This document shows positions 31,832-41,163 of a DNA stretch of 64,000 bases, piece by piece. The translations under genes were made by a program, and so were the position numbers. A model generated the notes under the pieces. It saw nothing but the letters and a program-made list of their open reading frames with translations, was not told the DNA's origin and made no database searches. The first letter of the stretch is position 1; the number at the start of each line of letters is the position of its first letter. The stretch is from an uncultured Bacteroidales bacterium. Its GTDB lineage: Bacteria > Bacteroidota > Bacteroidia > Bacteroidales > Paludibacteraceae. The stretch covers positions 290-64,289 of the forward strand of contig CACWNR010000009.1 of NCBI GenBank assembly GCA_902762355.1. The letters run 5' to 3'.

Positions 31832-32238
31832 TGTTTCTTCGTCGCTACCACCAACTTAATCTGGTGTTCATTCGCAATATCCAGCACACGTACTACCTCT
31901 TTGTACGCTACATCCTCATCGGCATGCAGGGCGATGTACATCGTCGAGTCCGAAGCCTGAATGGTACTCAGGTACGCCTCCAGACTCTCCGGATCGATCT
32001 GAACCGGTTTCTCCTTGCCCAGCGCCACGAAATAATTGCCTAAGTTGTCTATGGACACCTTGGCTACCTGCGGCCGCGTCACTTTGGTCGCGCGCGAAGT
32101 CGGCAGGTTGATCTTGATATCATTCGGGGACGACATCGTAGATGCCATGACGAAGAAAAGGAGTAAGAGGAACACCAAGTCCGTCATGGAGCTCATCGCG
32201 AACGTCGCTTCTACCCTATTGCGTTTCTTTAGTGCCAT
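31828..32238 (-). CDS. exbD: biopolymer transporter ExbD
   Basis: 136 aa, single TM, ExbD/TolR pattern (MSSMTDLVFLLLLFF). Confidence 0.9.
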   Translation of the reverse strand: MALKKRNRVEATFAMSSMTDLVFLLLLFFVMASTMSSPNDIKINLPTSRATKVTRPQVAKVSIDNLGNYFVALGKEKPVQIDPESLEAYLSTIQASDSTMYIALHADEDVAYKEVVRVLDIANEHQIKLVVATKKQ

Positions 32239-32240
32239 AG

Positions 32241-32936
32241 TTATGCGGGCTCATTAAGAAGATCCATGAATTCGAGTGTACGGCTCTCGAGCAGACGAAC
32301 CACACGGTCAATGCGGGAAACGAGGTAGTTGTATGCAAACATCGCCAGAATACCTACGATCAAACCGCCGATGGTCGTTACCATGGCCTGATACATACCC
32401 GTCGAAAGAGCACTCATCTCGATCATTCCGCCCGAGGTCTGCGCCATGTTATAGAAGGTCTGAACCATACCGAGTACCGTTCCGAGGAAACCGAGCATCG
32501 GAGCACCGCCAGCGATAGTAGCCATGATCACAAGGCCTTTCTCCAGACGACCTACCTCGAGGTTTCCCACGTTCTCAACCGCTACCTGTACATCCTGCAT
32601 CGGACGACCGATACGCGTGATACCTTTCTCGATCATGTGTGCGGAGGGGGTGTCGGTCTGCTTGCACAGATTCAACGCCGAGTCAATCTTGCCCTCATGG
32701 ATATAATCGCGGATACGATCCATGAACGACTTGTCCTCGCGCGTAGCCTGCTTGATAACGACCAGACGGGCAATGAAAATATAACAAGCGATAGCCAGCA
32801 GGATAGCCAGGATGATCATGATCCAACCACCATACTGCGCCATTTCCCATAAGTTGATAGACGTGTCTTGAACAGGAGCTTCAGCCTCCATGATTGCCTC
32901 TTCGATAACGGCAACGGTGTCAATTTGTAAAAGCAT
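32241..32936 (-). CDS. exbB: MotA/TolQ/ExbB proton channel protein
   Basis: Three TMs, GGAPMLGFLGTVLGM signature. Confidence 0.9.
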   Translation of the reverse strand: MLLQIDTVAVIEEAIMEAEAPVQDTSINLWEMAQYGGWIMIILAILLAIACYIFIARLVVIKQATREDKSFMDRIRDYIHEGKIDSALNLCKQTDTPSAHMIEKGITRIGRPMQDVQVAVENVGNLEVGRLEKGLVIMATIAGGAPMLGFLGTVLGMVQTFYNMAQTSGGMIEMSALSTGMYQAMVTTIGGLIVGILAMFAYNYLVSRIDRVVRLLESRTLEFMDLLNEPA

Positions 32937-32937
32937 A

Positions 32938-33654
32938 TTATTTCTTAAGTAATTCTAAATATTCCTGAATTGTTTCTTGGATGCCCAGATAGAGCGAGTC
33001 GCAGATGATGGCGTGTCCAATCGACACTTCCGCTGTCCATGGGAAAGCCTTGATGAACGGCTTGAGGTTCTTGAGGTTGAGATCATGACCGGCGTTCATA
33101 CCCAGACCCAACTCGTGCGCTTTCTCTGCCGCAGGACGGTACTTCTCGATAGCGCGTTTCGGATCGCTCTCGAACAGCTCCGCATAGGGACCCGTATAGA
33201 GCTCCACACGGTCAGCGCCTGTACGCAGTGCGTACTCGACCATCACCGGATCCGGATCCACAAAAATGCTCACGCGGATACGATACGAGTGCAATTGGTT
33301 CACCACGCCCTTGAGGAAATTGAGGTTCCTGCGCGTGTCCCAGCCGTGGTTAGACGTCAACTGACTCGGATCGTCAGGCACCAGCGTCACCTGCGTCGGA
33401 CGGATATCCGTTACCAGCGCCAAGAACTCGTCCGTCGGATTACCCTCCACGTTCAGTTCGGTCGTCACCATCGACTTGAGTTGATACACATCTTCCTTGC
33501 GGATATGACGCTCATCGGGACGCGGATGAACCGTTATTCCTTGCGCTCCGAACAACTCGCAATCCACCGCAAAACGCTGCACATCAGGCAGATTACCGCC
33601 ACGCGCATTACGCAGCGTTGCGACCTTATTGATATTTACACTCAGTTTCGTCAT
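32938..33654 (-). CDS. pdxJ: pyridoxine 5'-phosphate synthase
   Basis: LSVNINKVATLRNARGG.. The ATG at 33654 is preferred because a -7 box lies at 33678-33685. Confidence 0.93.
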   Translation of the reverse strand: MTKLSVNINKVATLRNARGGNLPDVQRFAVDCELFGAQGITVHPRPDERHIRKEDVYQLKSMVTTELNVEGNPTDEFLALVTDIRPTQVTLVPDDPSQLTSNHGWDTRRNLNFLKGVVNQLHSYRIRVSIFVDPDPVMVEYALRTGADRVELYTGPYAELFESDPKRAIEKYRPAAEKAHELGLGMNAGHDLNLKNLKPFIKAFPWTAEVSIGHAIICDSLYLGIQETIQEYLELLKK

Positions 33655-33677
33655 GTCGAGTATTTTGAAAATCGCTG

Positions 33678-33685
33678 CAAAGATA
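33678..33685 (-). promoter_or_regulatory. -7 box TATCTTTG for pdxJ
   Basis: Minus-strand GTATCTTTGCAGCG about 25 nt upstream of the ATG at 33654. Confidence 0.5.
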
Positions 33686-33730
33686 CAACAAAAATTGCAT
33701 ATATGCAAGAAAAAACAAAAAAATCACAAT

Positions 33731-34078
33731 TTATTGTTCAAAGGGGTGTGCTTGTTTGTAATCGTGAATGAGCGAATTATATTTCCACGCACGGACAGTG
33801 GTGTAGGTTTTGCCGTTGGAGGCGATGTGGTTTGCTGCCTCGAAGTCGGCAGCCAGTTGCGCCTTGGCTTCCGGAGAGGTTAGGAGTTTGAGTTGGGAAT
33901 TGGCATATTTAAAGGCAGCAGAGTTCCATTTCTGGCGAGGAGACTGATTCTTTTGATAGTCTTCGTCACGTTCACGATAAAATTGTCTGCCATTTCGCAT
34001 GTAAAAATAACCTCTGTCGCGGTTATACGTCTTACCGTGGATCTGTTCGATACCTGAAGATGCTATTATTCTTGACAT
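33731..34078 (-). CDS. hypothetical small basic protein
   Basis: 115-aa ORF with its own -7 box (34245-34252) and a leader of about 160 nt. I recognise no family. Confidence 0.45.
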   Translation of the reverse strand: MSRIIASSGIEQIHGKTYNRDRGYFYMRNGRQFYRERDEDYQKNQSPRQKWNSAAFKYANSQLKLLTSPEAKAQLAADFEAANHIASNGKTYTTVRAWKYNSLIHDYKQAHPFEQ

Positions 34079-34180
34079 AAAAAAGATTGTTTTAAAAAGT
34101 ATATTATATATAAATATATAATATAGTATTGTACATAAATTTGGGCTTCTTTTCGGGTCGACGTGGGCTAAACGTAGGCT

Positions 34181-34224
34181 TTAACTGTCGCTTCACCGTC
34201 GCTTGACCGTCGTTTGACCGTCGT
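34181..34224. repeat. 11-bp phased tandem repeat x4 (TTGACCGTCGY)
   Basis: ttaactgtcgc ttcaccgtcgc ttgaccgtcgt ttgaccgtcgt. Weaker 11-bp phasing (GGGCT/AGGCT) extends back to about 34160. Confidence 0.8.
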
Positions 34225-34244
34225 TCAAAGTCCCTTTTTCGGGT

Positions 34245-34252
34245 GCAAAGGT
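34245..34252 (-). promoter_or_regulatory. -7 box TACCTTTG
   Basis: Minus-strand AGTACCTTTGCACC upstream of the repeat-containing leader of ORF 33731..34078. Confidence 0.5.
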
Positions 34253-34540
34253 ACTGCTTTTCTTTGATATATGCAAATAAAATCCACTCAAAATATCATT
34301 TTTTTTAAAAATTGCATTATCCCACAAATTTTTGGAGCCAAAACATGCACTATCCCCAAAATGTTTCGAAGCAAGATATACACTGAGCGTAAAATTGGTA
34401 GGAGAGAAATATTCTCTGAGCGCAAGATTTACATCATGTCCCTCTGTTGGATGACATCCAACTCAATGAACGATGTAACCGGAATCAGATTCCGGGCTAA
34501 TGAACGAACTATATTAAAAAAGTGACAAAAAAATGATTTT

Positions 34541-35536
34541 TTATGCTAATGTTGATACATATCCATCTATATATGGTCGATTGTTAGTAACAACAGCGAA
34601 AGCTATGCGGATAAGTTTATTAGCGACAGCAATGATAGCAGCTTTGCCGGATTTGCCTCTCTCGCGTAAACGTACGAATGTATCTCGACAAGCCGCATTA
34701 CACTTTATAGATGCAACCGCGACAATATACAATTGACTGCGTAGATGTGTATCTCCGTTACGATTAATGTGACCTTTGAAATTAACTGACGTACCTGATT
34801 GCTGGTAGGTGGGACAAAGTCCTAGGAACCGCGAGATCTGTTTAGCACTGCTAAAGTACGTAAAGCCTCCTGTTGCCATTATGAGTGCAGAAGCGATATT
34901 TTCGCCGATTCCCTTAATGGACGTGAGTAACTCCATTTGGCGCTTAAACTCCTTGTTAGATAGATGGGTAATCTCGTCTTCTAACTTAGAAATTTGCTTA
35001 CGCAGGAACTTAATGGTTTGCTCGGTTGCAACTTTAGCCGTAGGGTCTTGCTTGGGTAGAACCGACAAGGAGTGCTGTAGATTGATCATCATCGTAAGTT
35101 GCTTCTTAAGTTGCCGAAGGACAGTGCGTTTCTGCTTTAGCTGAATGATGCTCTCTGACGGGATTTTATAGGGCGCTGGCTCCATTTTCTCACCATACAT
35201 AGCAATCAGTTTAGCATCGATCTCGTCTGTCTTGGTAGTGGACAACATGGCACGAGCAAAATGCTTAATCTTCTGCGGGTTCTCCATGCTAACGGTAATA
35301 TTAGCCTGTTGAAGCAGATAGAGGAGAAGCATACTATAGTTGCCGGTTGCCTCCATCACACAATGACATTCAGCCGGAAGCGATTGAATGAACTTACGCA
35401 CACCACTAGTGGTGTTAGGGAACTTTTGGGTTTTGTAATCTCCCTTAGTCGGATAGGCTGCTACGAACGAATCCTTGCTTACGTCAATACCAATGTAGGT
35501 CATAATGCTATTTGATTTATTGCGCTGATTAAACAT
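34541..35536 (-). CDS. IS110-family transposase/recombinase
   Basis: YIGIDVSKDSF (DEDD RuvC-like N-domain), C-terminal Transposase_20-like ..SIKGIGENIASALI..GLCPTYQQSG. Alternative start at ATG 35503. Confidence 0.9.
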   Translation of the reverse strand: MFNQRNKSNSIMTYIGIDVSKDSFVAAYPTKGDYKTQKFPNTTSGVRKFIQSLPAECHCVMEATGNYSMLLLYLLQQANITVSMENPQKIKHFARAMLSTTKTDEIDAKLIAMYGEKMEPAPYKIPSESIIQLKQKRTVLRQLKKQLTMMINLQHSLSVLPKQDPTAKVATEQTIKFLRKQISKLEDEITHLSNKEFKRQMELLTSIKGIGENIASALIMATGGFTYFSSAKQISRFLGLCPTYQQSGTSVNFKGHINRNGDTHLRSQLYIVAVASIKCNAACRDTFVRLRERGKSGKAAIIAVANKLIRIAFAVVTNNRPYIDGYVSTLA

Positions 35537-35690
35537 CGATACATCTGAACACTATCGTTGCAAATGCGGGGTCTGTGCCCTAATGAACTATCCAGTTTTT
35601 AGATGTATAAAGTATGGGGGCAAAACGTCCATTACGGTCTTGTGACAAACAAAGGATCGGCCTTACTCCATACTTTAGATGTCAAATCGG
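35504..35690 (-). ncRNA. candidate IS110 bridge RNA / structured 5' leader
   Basis: The -7 box at 35694-35701 predicts a leader of about 185 nt. A 10-bp stem (35608-35617 with 35668-35677) and a 6-bp stem (35541-35546 with 35601-35606) each enclose about 50-55 nt. ACATCTAAA occurs twice. Confidence 0.35.
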
Positions 35691-35693
35691 CTG

Positions 35694-35701
35694 CAAAGGT
35701 A
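35694..35701 (-). promoter_or_regulatory. -7 box TACCTTTG inside the IS110 element
   Basis: Minus-strand TACCTTTGCAGCC with an upstream TTTG at about 35725. Confidence 0.5.
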
Positions 35702-35739
35702 CAAAAAATATTTTGAATATACAACAAAGGACAGTTAGT

Positions 35740-35969
35740 GTTGGCAGGATGTGGCGGAGCGGTATCCTGCCAACACGGAACACCGGAATCCCGAAGGGAG
35801 AGCGGGCTATCCGATTGCCCTGCAATGGAAGAAAAATATTGCGGTGATACAATCACCGCGAAATGGACATACATTATGAACCAGAATACAATTTCTGGAA
35901 ATGGAAGAAGGTGGGATGTCGGAATTATATTCCGACGCAATAGACAAAGCTATGCCGATTGACAATCGG
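35740..35969. repeat. cluster of REP-like short hairpins
   Basis: Stems at 35740-35774 (11 bp), 35841-35859 (8 bp), 35881-35898 (6 bp), 35918-35936 (8 bp, CGGAAT tat ATTCCG) and 35955-35969 (6 bp). Confidence 0.7.
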
Positions 35970-35980
35970 TGGAATACAAA

Positions 35981-36009
35981 GAAAAACACCACGCTTTGCA
36001 GGCGTGGTG
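35981..36009 (-). terminator. rho-independent terminator of the island cassette
   Basis: Minus strand CACCACGC-CTGCAAA-GCGTGGTG followed by TTTTTC, 25 nt after the stop at 36034. Confidence 0.75.
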
Positions 36010-36033
36010 TGAAGTTAAATCGTCGTTGAGGAA

Positions 36034-36720
36034 TTACCAATCTTCCTCGCTGTCAGTGTTCTTAGGAGCGTAATGCTCGTTTAACCACGTAAGATAATAT
36101 GACGGATAACTCATCGTCTTTGCAAGCACATTGATCATTGCCTTTGCATGGACGTCTCTATCGTTTTTAGAGAAGTTCTTATAGTGCATAAACGGGTCTA
36201 AACGAGTGAGAGAATAGTTGAATAACTGATTCCCTATATGATAAGTCAAGTATGGTACATTAACTTTCATCTTCACTCTGTCGTCTTTGAACTTGAAATC
36301 AAAGATGATGTCTGCATCGAAGAAATATGTTGAGAGCATTACCTGTTGATATGCCAAATTTTGGTAATGTCCTTGAAAGAAAATGGACTTTTCTGTGCTT
36401 CCTTGTACTACGTTCGCACGGACGGTAGGAGTGAATTTGAAATAGTACTGCAAGAAATCCAGCGTCACATCTTTTATCTTTGCAATATCCAAGGTGTCGG
36501 ACGATTTAATTACAAACTCATACTCTATTTCTCCTTTCTCGTTGATACGATACGCGGCACTATCCACAATTGATTTTGCCCACGCTACATCCGAAGGATG
36601 ATTTTGCATAACACGGTTCCATTGTGCGATAGTTTCAGAAATCTTATCGCACGTGAATTGTTGTGCAAAACAACTGATACTTAGCCAACTAAGGCACAAG
36701 ATAAAAAATGTTCTTTTCAT
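36034..36720 (-). CDS. secreted hypothetical protein (DUF4468-like by pattern only)
   Basis: Signal peptide MKRTFFILCLSWLSISCFAQ, AT-rich codon usage, last gene of a 3-gene cassette. Confidence 0.55.
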   Translation of the reverse strand: MKRTFFILCLSWLSISCFAQQFTCDKISETIAQWNRVMQNHPSDVAWAKSIVDSAAYRINEKGEIEYEFVIKSSDTLDIAKIKDVTLDFLQYYFKFTPTVRANVVQGSTEKSIFFQGHYQNLAYQQVMLSTYFFDADIIFDFKFKDDRVKMKVNVPYLTYHIGNQLFNYSLTRLDPFMHYKNFSKNDRDVHAKAMINVLAKTMSYPSYYLTWLNEHYAPKNTDSEEDW

Positions 36721-36725
36721 TATCG

Positions 36726-37406
36726 TTAATTTTCTGTTATTCCTTTCATCATAAAATTCAGAAATTCACTCCCTAGGCGGCTTCGTTTATATAAACGCAC
36801 ACGTTCAGGATTACGGAATCGAATGTTTCCCCGTCTTCTACTGGCCATTTTCATGTATTCTTCACCATCAATCTCATCAACGAGACCAAGATATTTGAGA
36901 TTCAATAGATGCACAGGAATTATATCTGAATTATACTTACTTCCTATTTTCTCAACTAGTTGTCTCTCGTATATATAATTCTCAACGGCATTAAGAATGT
37001 ATATACTAAAATAATCTAATCGGTCCAGATAATTTGCAAATATTAGTTTGTTGCTGCAATTCAAACTATCAGGATGGATGCAAGCAGCTAAAAATGTAGC
37101 ATATAGTTTGCGTTTCTGTGCATTGAATTCATCTTTCGACTTTTGTAGTATCGGCAAAATATCATCCGTAAATGTTTGTATGTCAATATATGGCTTTATT
37201 CCTATTTGTCTCTCAATGCAATCTATTTTCAAATTTAACTCATTTAGAACCTCAATAATATTATTAACTTGTGAAGTGTTAATACCATCGCAGAAAGCAG
37301 TTATAGTAGCAGCTATAGGATTGGGATTGGCAACAAACTTTAACAACTGAATTGATATAAATTCAGCTCCAGTTGTTTTTGAAACTCTAATCTCTCCCAT
37401 AATCAA
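36726..37406 (-). CDS. hypothetical cytoplasmic protein (weak Abi-alpha-like feel)
   Basis: 226-aa ORF with no signal peptide, AT-rich, 6 nt from the downstream gene and 15 nt from the upstream gene. Confidence 0.5.
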   Translation of the reverse strand: MIMGEIRVSKTTGAEFISIQLLKFVANPNPIAATITAFCDGINTSQVNNIIEVLNELNLKIDCIERQIGIKPYIDIQTFTDDILPILQKSKDEFNAQKRKLYATFLAACIHPDSLNCSNKLIFANYLDRLDYFSIYILNAVENYIYERQLVEKIGSKYNSDIIPVHLLNLKYLGLVDEIDGEEYMKMASRRRGNIRFRNPERVRLYKRSRLGSEFLNFMMKGITEN

Positions 37407-37420
37407 AATATATCCGTGAT

Positions 37421-38215
37421 TTAGTCTTTGTAATCAATAATCATTTTAATCAGTTCCAGCTTGTCTGGTTCGATCTCTAAAATTTTCTTAATCATAGGCT
37501 TTATTTTCCAATGTCTCAATTTTCGTTCTATTCCTAATTGTTTCTTCTTTATCGTTTCTTCGTTAACATATTGCTCAGATTGATCCACCCAACGCAAATT
37601 TGTCGCGTCATTATTAAGCGGGTTACTATCTATATGGTCAACTTGTTGCTTGTTTTCAGGATTTGGAATAAAAGCTTGTGCTACTAATCTATGTACAGCA
37701 TAATGATGATTGTTTCCTTCCGTATCCGTAAGAAGAATATATCTATACCCATGAGCCATATGCCCATATATGATTTGATTTGTCACCTTTACATATATTC
37801 TCCCTCTATTACTCACTTGATGAGTATTATATCCTTCAATATCTTTCCACTCCTCTCCTTCAAGAGATGCTTTAATTTTAGGAAGTTTTCCTCCATAGTA
37901 ATCACGAAGATAATCGCGAACGGTATCTACCCCACGATTATATTTTTCCGCAATTTCTTTTATGGTTAATCCACTTTCATATTCTTGTTTAAATGATAAT
38001 ATCTCTTTTTCTCCCAAACGTTTTTGCTTTTTGTTTCTCACCTTGCCTTCTTCACGCAATCTTTTTGCAACAATATCAGTAGCGATAAAACTTAATCCAA
38101 GTTTATCACGAATGATCACATGGGCTAAATAGCTGATATTATTTTCCCATGTATCAATAAAAAACTGCTCTTGTTCTTCTGTGAGAACGATAGGTGTTTT
38201 CCTTTCTGGTCTCAT
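37421..38215 (-). CDS. HTH + NUMOD4 + HNH_3 homing-type endonuclease
   Basis: EEWKDIEGYNTHQVSNRGRI (NUMOD4); HRLVAQAFIPNPENKQQVDHIDSNPLNNDATNLRW (HNH_3); N-terminal LTIKEIAEKYNRGVDTVRDYL is HTH-like. Confidence 0.8.
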   Translation of the reverse strand: MRPERKTPIVLTEEQEQFFIDTWENNISYLAHVIIRDKLGLSFIATDIVAKRLREEGKVRNKKQKRLGEKEILSFKQEYESGLTIKEIAEKYNRGVDTVRDYLRDYYGGKLPKIKASLEGEEWKDIEGYNTHQVSNRGRIYVKVTNQIIYGHMAHGYRYILLTDTEGNNHHYAVHRLVAQAFIPNPENKQQVDHIDSNPLNNDATNLRWVDQSEQYVNEETIKKKQLGIERKLRHWKIKPMIKKILEIEPDKLELIKMIIDYKD

Positions 38216-38266
38216 ATCATTAATTATTAAATAATCGCTTGAAGAAAGAGAATAAGCCTGTTAAAA

Positions 38267-38512
38267 TTATTTTTTTAGATAATGTCTTAATTGTATAATA
38301 TCTATACCAGGAGGTAATGTCATTTCAAAAGACAGATTGTGCTCCGCTAGCCATTGTTCTATTTCCTCGATAGATTTCTGACCCATTGAGCGAGCGGCTC
38401 TCAGATCATTACGTCTACATTGTACAAGATCCCAAACGGTATTAATATTAGCATAGTATAATCCACGTTCTGTACGTGTAGAGAAATGCAGTGCACTATT
38501 TGTGTCTATTAG
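38267..38512 (-). pseudogene. stand-alone RNA polymerase alpha C-terminal-domain-like ORF lacking an ATG/GTG/TTG start
   Basis: Open frame LIDTNSALHFSTRTERGLYYANINTVWDLVQCRRNDLRAARSMGQKSIEEIEQWLAEHNLSFEMTL.. aligns position-for-position with E. coli alpha-CTD ([46 protein letters not shown]). The frame opens right after a stop at 38513-38515. Confidence 0.55.
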
Positions 38513-38631
38513 TCAATCGAGGCTCTGCAAAGCCCAACAACAAGTAATATACACGAATAGTCCACGCTGAACACGTGGAACTTTCGCTTCTTACTATCTT
38601 GTTGTTTGTGAAACTTGCAGATTTCGATTGG
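38513..38631. other. nested-stem structured element (unknown RNA or DNA structure)
   Basis: Four nested stems: 38514-38520/38624-38630 (7 bp), 38525-38530/38615-38620 (6 bp), 38536-38544/38598-38606 (9 bp) and the inner hairpin 38561-38566/38574-38579 (6 bp). Confidence 0.5.
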
Positions 38632-38744
38632 CAAGATAAAAAGCTAAAGTTCAATATTTTCAATATATCTGCGCAACACTTTGCGCTTATCCTTCCTGTT
38701 TAACGTCGGGAAGCGACGGCCGGTTTTTACGCTGGCGGGGCAGC

Positions 38745-38757
38745 GAGGGGTTATTTA
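38745..38757. repeat. left arm of the perfect 13-bp inverted repeat GAGGGGTTATTTA
   Basis: Exact reverse complement of 39178-39190. Confidence 0.85.
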
Positions 38758-38945
38758 TCGTTATAGTGCTCCTCTAATTGAATGACGAGCACGTAAACAT
38801 ATTCATCGTAAATGTCGTAAATAATACCGCGTACATCATAGACTCGCAAAGTATTGTTCCATTTCTGCTTTACTATTGCACCGAATCGTTTCACCACGTT
38901 CGGATTCTTTCCGCGCTGCGTTAATACGACGACGCAAGGCGGGAG
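38751..38945 (-). pseudogene. RelE/ParE-like toxin remnant (no start codon, overlaps the antitoxin-like ORF out of frame)
   Basis: Frame reads ..NTLRVYDVRGIIYDIYDEYVYVLVIQLEEHYNDK*, resembling the C-terminal RVGDYRIIY.I.DE.VYVL.I core of RelE/ParE toxins. The frame is open only from 38945. Confidence 0.35.
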
Positions 38946-39069
38946 TTATCTCCTGCCGAGCCTCTTCTTCTGCAACATCTTTGCGCGTGAAAGTCCAGCC
39001 CATGGTTCGTACCATTTGCTCAAACCAACCTATTTGAGCAGTCGGAACTTGTAATGTCACTGTTGCCAT
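38836..39069 (-). CDS. putative antitoxin-like small protein
   Basis: 77 aa with a -7 box at 39096-39103. N-terminal MATVTLQVP..GW and C-terminal ..EMEQYFASL resemble small Bacteroidetes antitoxin partners. Assigned mainly by context. Confidence 0.4.
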   Translation of the reverse strand: MATVTLQVPTAQIGWFEQMVRTMGWTFTRKDVAEEEARQEITPALRRRINAARKESERGETIRCNSKAEMEQYFASL

Positions 39070-39095
39070 AATGGTATTATTTTTATTTTACGCTG

Positions 39096-39103
39096 CAAAA
39101 TTA
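39096..39103 (-). promoter_or_regulatory. -7 box TAATTTTG
   Basis: Minus-strand GTAATTTTGCAGCG about 27 nt upstream of the ATG at 39069. Confidence 0.5.
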
Positions 39104-39155
39104 CATAAAATATTTGATATATGCAAATAAATTTGCACAATTCAAAAAAAAGCAG

Positions 39156-39163
39156 TAAATTTG
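39156..39163 (+). promoter_or_regulatory. -7 box TAAATTTG (nadK promoter candidate)
   Basis: GCAGTAAATTTGCAGCC. A second TAAATTTG lies at 39128-39135. Confidence 0.45.
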
Positions 39164-39177
39164 CAGCCGCAAATGAG

Positions 39178-39190
39178 TAAATAACCCCTC
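39178..39190. repeat. right arm of the perfect 13-bp inverted repeat
   Basis: TAAATAACCCCTC is the reverse complement of 38745-38757. Confidence 0.85.
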
Positions 39191-39340
39191 TAGGCTTAGA
39201 GGAGCTCCCGCTTGATTCCATAACGATGACTTCGTGAGTCCGAGTTAAGAGCGAGGGCATGACGCGGAGCGTCCTTCCGCTTTCGGAAGGAGCGGCTTCC
39301 GCCTAGGATGGTTTCCTGGGTGAGTCATAGCCAGCAGCGA

Positions 39341-40234
39341 ATGACGATAGCTATTTTTGGAAATGCAATGAAATCGCGTACCTTGACAGAGGTACGACAC
39401 ATACTGGACTTTATGGCCGAGAAGGGCATCAATGTCCTGTTATCGCAAGAGTTACGGCAAGAATTAGACCTGCGTGAGTATCCGGGCTTCCCGGAGAACT
39501 GGGACGGTGAGACCCAGCCGGAGAACGTGTATGGCGAGCCGATAGACTTTGCGCTGTCTGTAGGCGGTGATGGTACCTTCCTTACCAGTGCAGCAGCCAT
39601 CGGAAACAAGAACATCCCTATTCTGGGTGTCAACTGCGGTCATTTGGGTTTCCTGGCAGAAGTGCAGACTGACGATTTGGATGAGATTCTCAAGCAGCTC
39701 ATCGAAGGACAATACACCATTGAGCGTCGTACATTGCTGAATGTGACGATATTGGACAAAGACGGTATTGCCCGTGAGGGGTTAATCATGTCTCCGAACG
39801 CGCTGAACGAGATCGCTATCCTCAAGCAAGGTCTGACAAACATGTTGACCATCGAGACGAAGATCAACGGCGAGTTATTGCACACCTATCATTCCGACGG
39901 ACTCGTCATCGCGACGCCTACCGGAAGTACAGCGTATAACCTCTCTATCGGTGGCCCGCTGCTCGTGCCGCAGAGCCGTGGCATCATCCTCACGCCTATC
40001 GCGCCGCACAGCCTGACTGTTCGTCCGATCGTTATTCTGGACGAATGGAAGATCGACATCAAGGTAAGTAGCCGTTATGACGCGTATATGGTGTCGGTCG
40101 ATGGTCGCAGTCAGAGTCTGAGTACCGACCTGAGCCTGCATATCGAGCGCGCGCCGTACACCACGAAGGTCGTGCAGATAGGCGATAACGGATTCTTGAA
40201 ATCTCTTCGGAATAAACTCAATTGGGGAAAATGA
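39341..40234 (+). CDS. nadK: NAD+ kinase
   Basis: GGDGTFL, NCGHLGFL, DGLVIATPTGSTAYNLS motifs. The ATG at 39341 (MTIAIFG) is preferred. Confidence 0.9.
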   Translation: MTIAIFGNAMKSRTLTEVRHILDFMAEKGINVLLSQELRQELDLREYPGFPENWDGETQPENVYGEPIDFALSVGGDGTFLTSAAAIGNKNIPILGVNCGHLGFLAEVQTDDLDEILKQLIEGQYTIERRTLLNVTILDKDGIAREGLIMSPNALNEIAILKQGLTNMLTIETKINGELLHTYHSDGLVIATPTGSTAYNLSIGGPLLVPQSRGIILTPIAPHSLTVRPIVILDEWKIDIKVSSRYDAYMVSVDGRSQSLSTDLSLHIERAPYTTKVVQIGDNGFLKSLRNKLNWGK

Positions 40235-41163
40235 TGCTGGATTTTATTACTTGGGACGTTGACCCGATATTGATTCATTTCGGGGACGGAGGTATTCGTT
40301 GGTACGGTCTGTTATGGGCGATCGGTCTGTATATATGCTGGATCGTGAACGAACGGATGTACAAGCACGAGAACTGCCCGGCAGAATGGGCGGATTACAT
40401 GTTCTTTTACATGGCGGCAGGCGTGATCATCGGCGCACGAATAGGACATTGTTGGTTCTATGAATGGCATCAATACGGTCAACCCTGGCACCTGTTCGGA
40501 TGGGAGTTCACCTACCGCAATCCGTATATCGAGAACCCGTTGCGTTTGCTTAAGATCTGGGAAGGCGGACTAAGCAGTCACGGCGGTGCGATTGGTCTGA
40601 TCATCGCCGCTTTTCTGCTTAACAAGAACAAGATGGCGCGCTATCCGCAGTTTGGTACGTCCTGGCTCTGGATCCTCGATCGCCTGTGTATTGGCGTCTG
40701 CTTCACGGCGATGCTCATTCGTCTGGGTAACCTCTTCAACAGCGAGATTTACGGCGGTCCGACCGATCTGCCGTGGGGCTTCATCTTCGTGCGCGACGGA
40801 CAAACGGTGCCGTGTCACCCCACGCAGATTTACGAGATGCTGTACTGCTTCGCCGCGCTGTGCGTGGTGTGGCCGCTGTATTGGTATACGGAAGCCCGCC
40901 GACGCGAAGGACTGCTGCTCGGAATCTTCTTCGAGATTATCTTCGTTACCCGCTTCCTGCTGGAGTTTATCAAGAACGATCAGGAAGCATTCGAAGCCGG
41001 ACATATACTGAACATGGGACAGTTGTTAAGCTTACCGTTCATCCTCCTCGGCATATTCCTTATTATACGCGCGTACAAGAGACCACTCTCGCCTGTAGTG
41101 GACAAACAACCCGAGAGCCTTGAGCCGAAATACAGAAATCAAAATGACAAAAAAAGATCTTAG
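40231..41163 (+). CDS. lgt: prolipoprotein diacylglyceryl transferase
   Basis: IRWYGLLWAIGL.., multi-TM, LWGFIF-like core. ATGA overlap with the nadK stop. Confidence 0.88.
   Translation: MMLDFITWDVDPILIHFGDGGIRWYGLLWAIGLYICWIVNERMYKHENCPAEWADYMFFYMAAGVIIGARIGHCWFYEWHQYGQPWHLFGWEFTYRNPYIENPLRLLKIWEGGLSSHGGAIGLIIAAFLLNKNKMARYPQFGTSWLWILDRLCIGVCFTAMLIRLGNLFNSEIYGGPTDLPWGFIFVRDGQTVPCHPTQIYEMLYCFAALCVVWPLYWYTEARRREGLLLGIFFEIIFVTRFLLEFIKNDQEAFEAGHILNMGQLLSLPFILLGIFLIIRAYKRPLSPVVDKQPESLEPKYRNQNDKKRS

Follow-up and report, generated by a model that had tools for sequence, protein, structure and literature searches.

Where conserved core genes flank a hotspot of recombination or integration, bacteria may carry genomic islets. 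Free-standing HNH homing endonucleases (NUMOD4/HNH_3, I-HmuI-like) are known from phages, as is the intronless homing of the seg and mob genes of T4. In 2024 Durrant et al. described the architecture of IS110-group elements with a bridge RNA in IS621 (PMC11208160). Abi-alpha (PF14337, formerly DUF4393) is an abortive-infection gene of an E. faecalis prophage (PMC6356687).

The window analysed here, a 64-kb stretch of DNA, contains parts that resemble these systems, Abi-alpha at most remotely, between the core genes pdxJ and nadK, which are divergently transcribed, each with its own promoter still adjoining it. The variable interval (33692 to 39340, 5,649 bp) has a G+C content of 39.1% versus 50.7% in the rest of the window (z = −8.5 relative to 236 same-size windows outside it; mean 0.506, sd 0.0136, minimum 0.468), and its AT-rich core (36034-38262, 34.8% G+C) is the lowest 2.2-kb stretch of the 64 kb. 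An earlier note on this DNA had proposed an AT-rich accessory island at this place and had counted 20 G+C in 36721-36780; the count was exact and the G+C scan confirmed the deviation. The GC3 of the HNH gene and o226 is 0.26, that of exbB, pdxJ, nadK and lgt 0.61-0.66; the same AT-rich genes are also low in G+C (29-35%) in their other hosts. The features are:

32938-33654, minus: pdxJ, strong Pfam match
33701-34279, minus: o115 module, resident, multi-copy in the clade
33731-34078, minus: ORF o115 (115 aa), inside the module
34095-34130, minus: AT palindrome in the o115 leader
34184-34227, minus: four 11-nt tandem repeats in the o115 leader
34246-34253, minus: −7 box of the o115 promoter, inside the module
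34279-38689, no strand: window-specific foreign cargo, 4.4 kb
34504-35725, minus: intact IS110-group insertion sequence, 1,222 bp with the duplicated GT core counted, ends fixed by more than 30 related copies
34504-34540, minus: IS110 right end (RE), 37 nt
34541-35536, minus: IS110 DEDD transposase/recombinase, 331 aa (320 aa from M12; PF01548, 2e-24; PF02371, 5.8e-21)
35537-35690, minus: predicted bridge RNA within the 189-nt left end (consensus structure and guide matching)
35694-35701, minus: −7 box of the bridge-RNA promoter, Bacteroidetes-type (TAnnTTTG)
35726-36033, minus: hairpin-rich non-coding spacer, contiguous with 34279-34503 before the IS110 insertion
35986-36010, minus: intrinsic terminator of the o228 gene (terminator scan)
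36034-36720, minus: o228, 228 aa, predicted to be exported, signal peptide, DUF4468/TBP-like fold
36726-37400, minus: o226, 224 aa, N-terminal helical half and C-terminal winged-helix-like half (model and fold searches)
37421-38215, minus: HNH homing-type endonuclease, 264 aa, with an HTH at the N-terminus followed by NUMOD4 and HNH_3 (Pfam)
37425-38262, minus: HNH unit, 838 bp, with near-identical tracts in other genomes
38216-38262, minus: 47-bp 3′-end remnant of a DUF723/RNase_T (DEDDh exonuclease) gene, its frame ending in GLFSFFKRLFNN and a stop
38270-38512, minus: fragment of an RNA polymerase alpha C-terminal-domain paralogue (PF03118, RNA_pol_A_CTD, E 9.6e-11)
38751-38839, minus: yoeB toxin remnant, a 21-aa stub after a 185-bp internal deletion and frameshift
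38836-39069, minus: o77, 77 aa, intact gene in antitoxin position, now an orphan
39096-39103, minus: −7 box of the o77 promoter (promoter motif)
39169-39340, plus: extra nadK leader, 172 nt, between the nadK promoter (−7 box 39156-39163) and the start
39264-39313: REP-like hairpin, 50 nt, multi-copy, within the nadK leader
39341, plus: most likely start of nadK, strong Pfam match

In the nearest species representative (L001) the alignment with the window runs to 33691 and resumes at 39341. About 108 bp lie in between there, an empty site such as the earlier note proposed to look for. The pdxJ-nadK spacing is about 110-175 bp, or more narrowly about 134-174 bp, in 9 of 16 same-genus loci; another 5 are contig breaks or have changed synteny, and the number of occupied sites is therefore uncertain. 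In this comparison, which is one between genomes (metagenome assemblies throughout) rather than between strains of this species, gene content at the site varied within the genus: there is no cargo in some genomes, and in others there are cargoes without relation to one another, a BspA-type LRR gene in L008, DUF3791/DUF3990 genes in L009 and yoeB-LRR_5 in L159. Homology to this last, sister genome ends at 34278 and restarts at 38690, the breaks being sharp (identity 90% over 34026-34278, 100% over 38690-38827 and 94% over 38826-39168), and the LRR_5 gene region occupies there the place of 34279-38689. The cargo of the window consists of the intact IS110, the start-less alpha-CTD fragment, the 47-bp exonuclease stub and the AT-rich run of three intact genes (HNH, o226, o228). 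The truly foreign part of the island is 34279-38689. The island is not one unit: the interval consists of at least six independent modules, and two of these (o115 and toxin-antitoxin) are resident. No housekeeping gene is among them (ORF list and Pfam), as had been claimed.

The o115 module is common to the window and L159 at the same site. About 580 bp of it are kept at 70-90% identity in most of 50 loci found, some genomes having two or more of them, beside dnaK, pfkA and other genes; the leader is kept in most of 36 aligned copies. The protein has no match in Pfam, PHROG, NCBIfam or PADLOC. On the nadK side, L159 and L161 have an intact 91-aa YoeB toxin (PF06769) after the same antitoxin, the two genes overlapping by 4 bp there and in L160 and L162. 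In the window, positions 9245-9429 of L159 are missing from the alignment, and the decayed toxin-antitoxin-like pair suspected from the letters turned out to be this yoeB with its 185-bp deletion beside intact o77, whose family comprises 52 clusters and which has no Pfam match. The nadK leader, only about 28 bp in L159, harbors a REP-like hairpin whose core recurs 38 times in related metagenome-assembled genomes, with several copies in each and 87-100% identity (most at least 94%); the fold z-score is −2.9 on one strand and −3.2 on the other.

The exonuclease remnant is identical in frame to the C-terminus of a 544-aa protein in L145 and its nucleotide identity, 100%, stops at 38262. The alpha-CTD fragment scores 41.7 bits (cut-off 23.8) over profile positions 18-67 of 67; a start codon is absent, as had been noticed before, and a stop precedes the frame.

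The IS110 element, also recognized earlier, matches NF033542 (IS110 family RNA-guided transposase) with 229 bits (cut-off 140) and is single-copy within the 64 kb. More than 30 related copies, each of about 1,222 bp and in unrelated flanks, define the left end GTTGTATATT... and the right end ...TATAGTTCGT; on the plus strand the GT core is AC, at 34504-34505 and at 35724-35725. The bridge-RNA consensus of 18 copies has two stem-loops with compensatory changes in 6 of 25 pairs. Its predicted target-binding loop contains the guides TCCTTTGT and AATGGAC, its predicted donor-binding loop GGATAGTTCAT and GCAACGATAG. Guides and flanks matched at 153 of 192 positions, as compared with 77 ± 9.7 in shuffled pairings (none of 10,000 shuffles was as high). 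The target guides of the present copy match both its flanks (6/7 and 4/5 positions), which indicates a simple insertion into pre-existing DNA. When the spacer is rejoined across the insertion site (300 nt) it folds with z = −2.76; it has no match in Rfam. The 'hairpin clusters' and the 'structured element' of the earlier note are present, but they are several distinct features: repeated Bacteroidetes promoter motifs, the intrinsic terminator, the o115 leader, the bridge RNA, the spacer and the REP-like hairpin.

The HNH endonuclease, whose presence had likewise been read correctly, matches PHROG 59 (1.3e-31) and the PADLOC HEase model (1.6e-24) and is 35-49% identical to phage HNH endonucleases. 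The HNH unit is 99.4-99.5% identical in L259-L266, where the downstream gene is unrelated (230 aa), and about 99% identical in L145-L148 from 38262 down to about 37110, 290 nt into o226. An HNH-less allele also exists: L155 is 84-99% identical to L259 across o228 and the exonuclease gene and unrelated beyond. With near-identical copies before unrelated genes, the unit behaves as a recently mobile gene. We infer from these alignments a free-standing homing-type endonuclease whose usual home would be the 3′ end of DUF723/RNase_T genes; gene conversion would have brought it in recently, along with the 5′ third of o226. The identity pattern could also stem from ordinary recombination between islands.

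The o226 family is small and mosaic (33 clusters; only 59 representatives among 1.84 billion proteins), and its genes usually lie just downstream of restriction or nuclease genes. Remote members match Abi_alpha over its full length, the best with 26.3 and 24.5 bits, below the gathering score of 29; o226 itself has no match to Abi_alpha or any other Pfam family. A remote link to Abi-alpha is possible, and o226 would bind DNA as an accessory to nuclease or defence genes. The o228 family comprises 18 clusters, and its members elsewhere lie upstream of DUF723/RNase_T genes; the AlphaFold2 model of o228 (pLDDT 73.7) gave in Foldseek 4e6f (DUF4468) as best match (E 3.9e-4), then 4jhy. The 500 bp before the HNH gene contain no canonical TAnnTTTG promoter; the three intact AT-rich genes may still be expressed via read-through from the antitoxin promoter.

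We propose that the interval is very probably a strain-variable, recombination-tolerant spot between two divergent core genes, into which unrelated cargo was swapped and then decayed. The ancestral state in the genus is the gap of about 110-175 bp. One sub-lineage carries the resident o77-yoeB pair on the nadK side and an o115 copy on the pdxJ side, and between these shared flanks lie the LRR-protein gene in the sister genome and the 4.4 kb of AT-rich foreign DNA here. The latter is a reshuffled piece of the accessory modules that circulate among rumen Bacteroidales, whose canonical order is o228-like gene, DUF723/RNase_T exonuclease, HNH, variable genes. Here the exonuclease gene is cut to 47 bp, the alpha-CTD gene has lost its start and yoeB lacks 185 bp; IS110 sits at a site matched by its own guides. 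Following DNA transfer, the shared flanks presumably allowed cargo to be exchanged through homologous recombination, because no other machinery (integrase, attachment repeats) is present.

That HNH, o226 and o228 work together as a single operon, such as an anti-phage system with the endonuclease as effector, the winged-helix Abi-alpha-like protein as sensor or regulator and the exported protein as accessory, for whose protection of the cell the island is kept, is the most serious alternative, though an unlikely one. All three ORFs are intact and read in one direction; they are separated by 20 and 5 bp and end in a terminator, and o226 relatives directly follow HNH, GmrSD-HNH and two type IIG restriction enzymes in defence-type neighbourhoods (T5orf172, AbiH, Fic, restriction-modification genes); the HEase and remote Abi_alpha matches point the same way. 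The genes do not co-travel, however: o228 relatives adjoin o226 relatives in none of six other o226 contexts examined, and in L259-L266 a 99.5%-identical HNH gene precedes the unrelated 230-aa gene. Moreover, neither o226 nor o228 matches a PADLOC system model, the Abi_alpha scores lie under the Pfam threshold and a promoter motif is absent upstream. The 'HNH cassette' of the earlier note is not a conserved three-gene system, its genes occurring separately elsewhere.

A decayed single integrative element (prophage, integrative mobilisable or conjugative), inserted site-specifically over the whole 5.6 kb, would explain the low G+C, the HNH endonuclease of phage type and the pseudogene fragments, and yet it is improbable. 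Scans of all ORFs (Pfam, NCBIfam, PHROG, PADLOC) turned up the IS110 transposase and the HNH endonuclease alone, and no integrase; no tRNA gene and no direct or attachment repeats bound the interval, and the PHROG scan gave no phage structural or replication genes within it. Both ends of the interval are common to the sister genome with its different cargo, and each cargo gene has its own distribution and identity pattern. Slightly less probable still is delivery of the cargo by IS110 as an expanded or composite RNA-guided element with passenger genes, a notion prompted by the intact IS110 inside the island and by expansion of IS110 into large cargo-carrying elements, as reported in a 2026 preprint (10.64898/2026.08.14.744561). 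The ends are exactly those of the more than 30 related copies, the flanks match the element's own guides, there is one copy only in the 64 kb, and the cargo genes occur elsewhere without IS110. An assembly chimera or contaminant DNA joined to the core contig, to which the abrupt G+C change and the insertion sequence could have given rise, is hardly credible: a contig of a second assembly from another sample (L149) is 100% identical over 5,801 bp, with the core flanks on both sides, the Logan contig L150 is 100% identical over 35590-39260 (3.7 kb), and both junction-proximal modules recur in L159. These identities mean that the region is not an assembly artefact.

The strain-variable spot is thus an ordinary mosaic accessory locus of known kinds of parts, a patchwork of selfish and decayed genes and not one new system. 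Of the strain-specific or novel biology predicted for it, the strain-specific part holds and the novel part is weakly supported, with modest leads and two genes worth follow-up.

Like IS621 (PMC11208160), the IS110 element has DEDD and Tnp domains, a long left end and a short right end, a 2-bp core at each junction and a predicted two-loop left-end RNA, and it lacks terminal inverted repeats, the guides of one loop matching the target flanks and those of the other the element ends. It differs in its core (GT, not CT), its Bacteroidetes-type internal promoter and its host clade (rumen Paludibacteraceae). Like Abi-alpha (PMC6356687), o226 is a single-domain, mostly helical protein of similar size (about 220-270 aa) from a family found in defence or prophage neighbourhoods, with remote members aligning to the whole Pfam model; unlike it, o226 gives no direct match, has Bacteroidales hosts and typically lies directly after a nuclease gene. 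The o77-yoeB pair resembles YefM/YoeB type II modules in the 4-bp overlap of a small antitoxin-position gene with a PF06769 gene in relatives and in having its own promoter; o77 is in no Pfam family and not YefM/Phd by sequence, and the toxin of the window is destroyed, its antitoxin left an orphan.

The HNH gene shares with phage free-standing homing endonucleases the NUMOD4 and HNH_3 domains, a polymorphic presence at one gene junction, near-identity across diverged backgrounds and an identity tract that runs into the neighbouring gene and decays, resembling co-conversion. Unlike these, the putative nuclease is chromosomal, in bacterial accessory islands, has an N-terminal HTH region and, in this window, is severed from its usual upstream neighbour. 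With genomic islets the interval has in common the conserved core flanks, sites empty in some relatives and filled with unrelated cargo in others, a deviant base composition, defence-type, toxin-antitoxin and insertion-sequence content, and pseudogene decay. It differs from them in being small (5.6 kb), without integrase, tRNA gene or direct repeats, and in that the o115 and toxin-antitoxin modules are resident and serve as inner flanks for cargo exchange.

The interval between pdxJ (PF03740, E = 4e-94) and nadK (PF01513 and PF20143; Pfam) is a small, strain-variable and multi-layered accessory region, and the site is empty in most relatives. Relatives were taken from pdxJ-based loci of 80 species representatives, which placed the window in the rumen Paludibacteraceae. 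The closest representative, RUG14367 (L001), has flanks with nucleotide identities of 92.6% and 87.5%; its alignment ends at window position 33691 and starts again at 39341, and about 108 bp lie between the two parts. Nine of the 16 same-genus loci with a pdxJ of at least 85% identity likewise have pdxJ and nadK adjacent, at a spacing of 134-174 bp; two of the 16 have other inserts and the remaining five are contig ends or show changed synteny. The divergent adjacency of pdxJ and nadK is also found in many loci of Prevotellaceae and Bacteroidaceae. An insert at locus L008 encodes a 1,205-aa BspA-type LRR protein, that at L009 a DUF3791/DUF3990 pair and one ORF without assignment, and a sister genome reached via the antitoxin (L159) has the antitoxin gene o77, an intact yoeB toxin gene and a gene for a 503-aa LRR_5 protein; the alternative cargoes have no sequence in common with one another or with the cargo of the window.

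The island (33692-39340) has a G+C content of 39.1%, the whole window 49.7% and the remainder 50.7%, which corresponds to z = -8.5 when the island is compared with 236 windows of the same size outside it (mean 0.506, sd 0.0136, minimum 0.468). The core at 36034-38262 contains 34.8% G+C, and no 2.2-kb stretch within the 64 kb is lower. GC3 is 0.26 in the HNH endonuclease gene and in the neighboring o226, 0.39-0.47 in the other island genes and 0.61-0.66 in exbB, pdxJ, nadK and lgt. The HNH gene, o226 and o228 are AT-rich in every host examined. The earlier note, made from the sequence alone, had described the interval as an AT-rich accessory island; its count of 20 G+C in 36721-36780 was exact on recount, and its right-hand boundary agrees with the start of nadK, which most likely lies at 39341, because the homology to relatives begins there and the frame reads MTIAIFGN. 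That note had proposed a search for empty sites and had named two findings that would speak against an island, namely the same gene content throughout the genus and no compositional deviation. Neither was encountered, because the sites are empty or differently filled and the composition deviates.

In the locus, a resident small-gene module, a yoeB pair in decay and a REP-like repeat are joined with foreign cargo; the cargo comprises three intact AT-rich genes, fragments of pseudogenes and an intact IS110 element of the bridge-RNA kind. The features are as follows:

33701-34279: o115 unit of about 580 bp, with the ORF o115 (115 aa) at 33731-34078, minus strand
34095-34130: AT palindrome of about 30 nt in the o115 leader, about 25 nt before the ATG
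34184-34227: tandem 11-nt repeats (CGACGGTCAAn) in the o115 leader, one helical turn apart, four here and three to five across the leaders of the family
34504-35725: IS110 element, with the transposase gene at 34541-35536
35986-36010: canonical terminator, just after o228
36034-36720, minus strand: o228, intact, with signal peptide
36726-37400, minus strand: o226, intact, likely start the ATG at 37400
37421-38215: HNH endonuclease gene, intact
38216-38262: 3' end of an exonuclease gene
38270-38512: alpha-CTD frame
38836-39069, minus strand: o77, antitoxin gene, intact
39264-39313: 50-nt hairpin GCGGAGCGTCCTTCCGCTTTCGGAAGGAGCGGCnTCCGCCTAGGATGGT, -22.7 kcal/mol
33678-33685, 34246-34253, 35694-35701 and 39096-39103 (minus strand), 39156-39163 (plus strand): promoter blocks TTTG...TAnnTTTGCA

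An assembly artefact was ruled out, since all of the 5,801 bp compared are 100% identical in a 62-kb contig of another assembly (L149), and window 35590-39260 is matched by a Logan contig (L150).

Comparison with L159 shows which stretches of the interval are resident and which are foreign. Toward nadK, 38826-39168, with a promoter, o77 and the beginning of the toxin gene (14 nt), is 94% identical to the sister genome, and 38690-38827, which holds the 3' end of the toxin gene plus 60 bp, is 100% identical; the common pdxJ side comprises 34026-34278 (90%) and 33600-33820 (95%). The 4.4 kb at 34279-38689 are specific to the window genome, L159 having about 1.9 kb with the LRR_5 gene instead. Scans with Pfam, NCBIfam, PHROG and PADLOC revealed no integrase in the island, a tRNA scan no tRNA gene in the 64-kb window, and direct repeats were not found at the boundaries. 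A single integrative element was rejected on these grounds, and because all three hallmarks are missing we infer that cargo would have been exchanged via homologous recombination in the shared flanks. Within the 64 kb, the other copies of island parts were just short promoter-motif repeats. The long repeats D1, D2 and I1 from the repeat finder, considered as element ends, were rejected as shared promoter motifs (TAnnTTTG with TTTG upstream); five near-identical promoter blocks of the Bacteroidetes type precede pdxJ, o115, the IS110 bridge RNA and transposase gene, o77 and nadK.

The resident module next to pdxJ, the o115 unit, is repeated in the clade: most of the 50 loci found have it at a nucleotide identity of 70-90%, some genomes carrying two or more copies, and the copies adjoin differing housekeeping genes, e.g. 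dnaK and pfkA. The ORF had no match in any library searched, nor in phage and plasmid collections (tblastn). Its leader, which has a Bacteroidetes-type promoter besides the 11-nt repeats and the AT palindrome, is kept in most of 36 aligned copies and looks like a dedicated regulatory region for a putative factor. Leaders of this type are found at 34079-34279 of the window and upstream of o115 homologues at loci L171-L215. The leader accounts for part of the hairpin clusters that the earlier note had placed in the island.

On the nadK side, o77 belongs to a family of 52 clusters that has no Pfam match, and a tblastn search of plasmids with o77 gave none either. At four loci (L159-L162) o77 and a 91-aa gene matching PF06769 (YoeB toxin) share 4 bp; this toxin gene is intact in L159 and L161, with the small antitoxin gene upstream. 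In the window 185 bp of yoeB are gone (L159 9245-9429), the frame shifts after codon 5 and stops after 21 codons, the old C-terminal 29 codons persist out of frame, and no intact PF06769 gene is present. The decayed toxin-antitoxin-like pair claimed earlier was thus correctly recognized, because yoeB is deleted and frameshifted while o77 is intact, an orphan antitoxin beside a dead toxin gene. L159 has at the same site its own 205-bp deletion inside o115 (L159 11463-11866); since each genome has a deletion of its own, different resident genes, o115 in L159 and yoeB in the window, decayed independently.

The distance from promoter to start codon at nadK is 172 nt in the window versus about 28 nt in L159. 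The 50-nt hairpin at 39264-39313 is a REP-like repeat, and it is probably what had been noted before as a structured element. Related MAGs of Paludibacteraceae carry its 24-nt core at 38 sites (L221-L258), several per genome and sometimes in tandem, and the whole unit is 87-100% identical among the copies, most of them being at least 94% identical. Tandems of four copies about 63-101 nt apart are found in L257 and of two copies in L244. The high conservation of the hairpin between species points to either recent mobility or strong selection; a transposase partner was not identified for it.

The transposase of the IS110 element matches PF01548 (E = 2e-24), PF02371 (E = 5.8e-21) and the NCBIfam model NF033542, "IS110 family RNA-guided transposase," with 229 bits (cut-off 140). 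Nucleotide comparison of 59 related loci, more than 30 copies of which fix the ends, placed the two boundaries at 34504 and 35725; on the strand of the transposase the left end is GTTGTATATT... and the right end ...TATAGTTCGT. Both junctions carry a GT core, the flanks are unrelated in every copy, and terminal inverted repeats are absent. The predicted donor is TATAGTTC-GT-TGTATATT and the predicted target GTCCTTT-GT-TCATTAG. From an alignment of 18 left ends two stem-loops were obtained, with compensatory changes at 6 of the 25 pairs; loop 1 contains variable segments and loop 2 conserved segments that match the element ends, so that the donor guides, as read from the sequence, agree with the ends of IS110. 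Guides and flanks agreed at 153 of 192 positions in 16 copies, as compared with 77 ± 9.7 when re-paired at random, and none of 10,000 shuffles reached 153. The left guide of the window copy, TCCTTTGT, is the same as left flank plus core, and its right guide AATGGAC pairs with GTTCATT except for one G-T wobble. Because the predicted guides of this copy match its own flanks, the element would have been inserted via the bridge-RNA mechanism into pre-existing cargo DNA. The earlier claim of an IS110 element is borne out by transposase domains, ends and predicted bridge RNA alike.

The possibility that the IS110 element had carried the cargo was considered and rejected. The element contains an internal TAnnTTTG promoter, whose upstream TTTG comes partly from the target flank. 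Its relatives (L081-L139) include more than 15 natural copies whose flanks are intact; these have a GT core and their guide/target pairs differ, L103 and L104 for instance by one compensating base in the guide as well as in the target. The targets of several copies are short hairpins that precede ATAAGAAC-like sequences, and many contigs end exactly at the ends of the element. When the DNA split by the insertion is rejoined, a 735-bp non-coding stretch with several hairpins is obtained, in which no convincing ORF was found; a 300-nt part of it gave a moderate folding signal (z = -2.76), and a search of 32000-41000 against Rfam yielded no match at E values up to 0.1.

The HNH gene encodes a protein with an N-terminal HTH, an HNH_3 domain (PF13392, 1.1e-10) and a NUMOD4 domain (PF07463, 2.3e-5), both exceeding the cut-offs, which confirms the endonuclease that the earlier note had predicted. 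The protein matches PHROG 59 and the HEase model of PADLOC, and its identity to HNH endonucleases of phages amounts to 35-49%. Upstream of it, 38216-38262 encodes ...GLFSFFKRLFNN followed by a stop, and this is exactly the C-terminal end of a DUF723/RNase_T (DEDDh) protein of 544 aa whose gene elsewhere precedes the same HNH gene; because just its C-terminus stands here, the exonuclease gene is truncated in the window. The adjoining alpha-CTD frame, reported before as an ORF without a start, indeed has no start codon and a stop just upstream; it matches PF03118 above threshold (E = 9.6e-11, profile positions 18-67) and has 39% identity with the C-terminus of a genuine RpoA.

The stretch 38262-37425 (838 bp) is 99.4-99.5% identical to eight contigs (L259-L266), in which an unrelated 230-aa gene follows the HNH gene. 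At four other loci (L145-L148) the identity is about 99% through the first 290 nt of o226, then 55-60%, and is gone after o226. A near-identical HNH unit thus occurs in three downstream contexts. The canonical module of about 4.6 kb consists of an o228 homologue, the DUF723/RNase_T gene, the HNH gene, the 230-aa gene and a 140-aa gene; in rumen metagenomes it stands in different chromosomal contexts with an identity of about 100% (L259 3400-8000; L260, L261, L266). In an HNH-less version (L155-L158) an identity of 84-99% extends through the exonuclease gene to a point about 40-140 bp short of its stop. Among the module variants the first gene is swapped or the HNH gene is absent, and the module exonuclease partially matches the PADLOC candidate PDC-S48. 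Such patterns are expected of a homing-type endonuclease gene that is free-standing and co-converts the sequence beside it; ordinary recombination among islands may also have produced them.

Downstream lies o226, whose family forms 33 clusters at 90% identity; among 1.84 billion representatives a profile search picked up only 59 members, nearly all of 210-250 aa. Its alleles are mosaic, some having a C-terminal half in common with P0004 and a different N-terminal half, and in the window allele the motif with the highest conservation, KRKLYATF..ACIHPD, is where the crossover lies. Confidence in the AlphaFold2 model is restricted to the C-terminal half (the N-terminal 56 residues have low confidence), and this half resembled MarR, PadR and winged-helix proteins weakly (Foldseek against PDB and BFVD, E at least 0.015). 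The profile search against PDB sequences and tblastn against phages found nothing. Abi-alpha is a single-gene abortive-infection protein from an E. faecalis prophage (PMC6356687). o226 did not match Abi_alpha (PF14337); the remote family members P0125, P0122 and P0121 align across the whole model with 26.3, 24.5 and 16.2 bits at a threshold of 29. In four of six distinct contexts, the window not counted, the o226 gene lies at most 25 bp downstream of a nuclease gene, these being HNH, GmrSD_N-HNH and two different type IIG restriction-modification enzymes; in the fifth a TnpB insertion lies upstream, and the sixth (L168) has no called gene immediately before it. Neighbors include T5orf172, AbiH, Fic and restriction-modification genes. 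T5orf172/MUG113-type genes flank the family in L144 (8683-9048, by motif reading) and L163 (332-988, Pfam), which reinforces its defense-island setting.

o228 has no Pfam match; its AlphaFold2 model (pLDDT 73.7) tentatively resembles Bacteroides DUF4468/TBP-like proteins (Foldseek; best 4e6f, E = 3.9e-4; 4e6f and 4jhy together 3.9e-4 to 2.7e-3, TM-score 0.40-0.56). Elsewhere it stands upstream of DUF723/RNase_T or RNase_T-BRCT genes and not beside relatives of o226. A 245-aa gene upstream of o228 in L151, considered as an o226 analogue, was unsupported (BLASTP E = 0.81). Since HNH, o226 and o228 each keep other neighbors elsewhere, they have become adjacent here through rearrangement and do not form a conserved system. 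No TAnnTTTG promoter is present within 500 bp upstream of the HNH gene, so that expression of the three genes would need read-through from the antitoxin promoter. The island contains no complete PADLOC v2 defense system, the HEase model matching the HNH gene only, and for o115, o226, o228 and o77 nothing useful was found in PADLOC, PHROG and NCBIfam.

The earlier note had expected strain-specific or novel biology at this locus. Its observation and most of its interpretation stand, the site being strain-variable; the novel part comes down to two leads, both unproven. The o226 family may be a rare winged-helix family of 220-240 aa, remotely Abi-alpha-like, whose halves are reshuffled between alleles and which would act as a new accessory of nuclease defense. 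The 0.84-kb HNH unit may be a homing endonuclease that spreads between bacterial chromosomes, targets the 3' ends of DUF723/RNase_T exonuclease genes in accessory islands and drags neighboring sequence along. Jointly, we consider these readings rather unlikely. Were the HNH gene homing, it would do so within defense islands, not phage genomes. If o226 were an Abi-like nuclease partner, or HNH homed among chromosomal exonuclease genes, a new defense-island component would be at hand, and this would also suggest a mechanism that helps to shuffle defense islands in gut Bacteroidales.

The locus shows in exemplary fashion how small accessory loci of bacteria are put together: by a cargo swap between resident inner flanks, by toxin decay that leaves an orphan antitoxin, by an IS110 element landing at a site that matches its own guides, and with a near-identical HNH gene common to other genomes. 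It should be of use in annotating genomes of rumen Paludibacteraceae, and it comes with more than 15 naturally occurring pairs of bridge RNA and target that have a GT core. Every piece of the island belongs to, or resembles, a known kind. The IS110 group is characterized by a long left end with the bridge RNA, a short right end and a short core (PMC11208160), and the element in the window has this layout, its left end being 189 nt and its right end 37 nt long.
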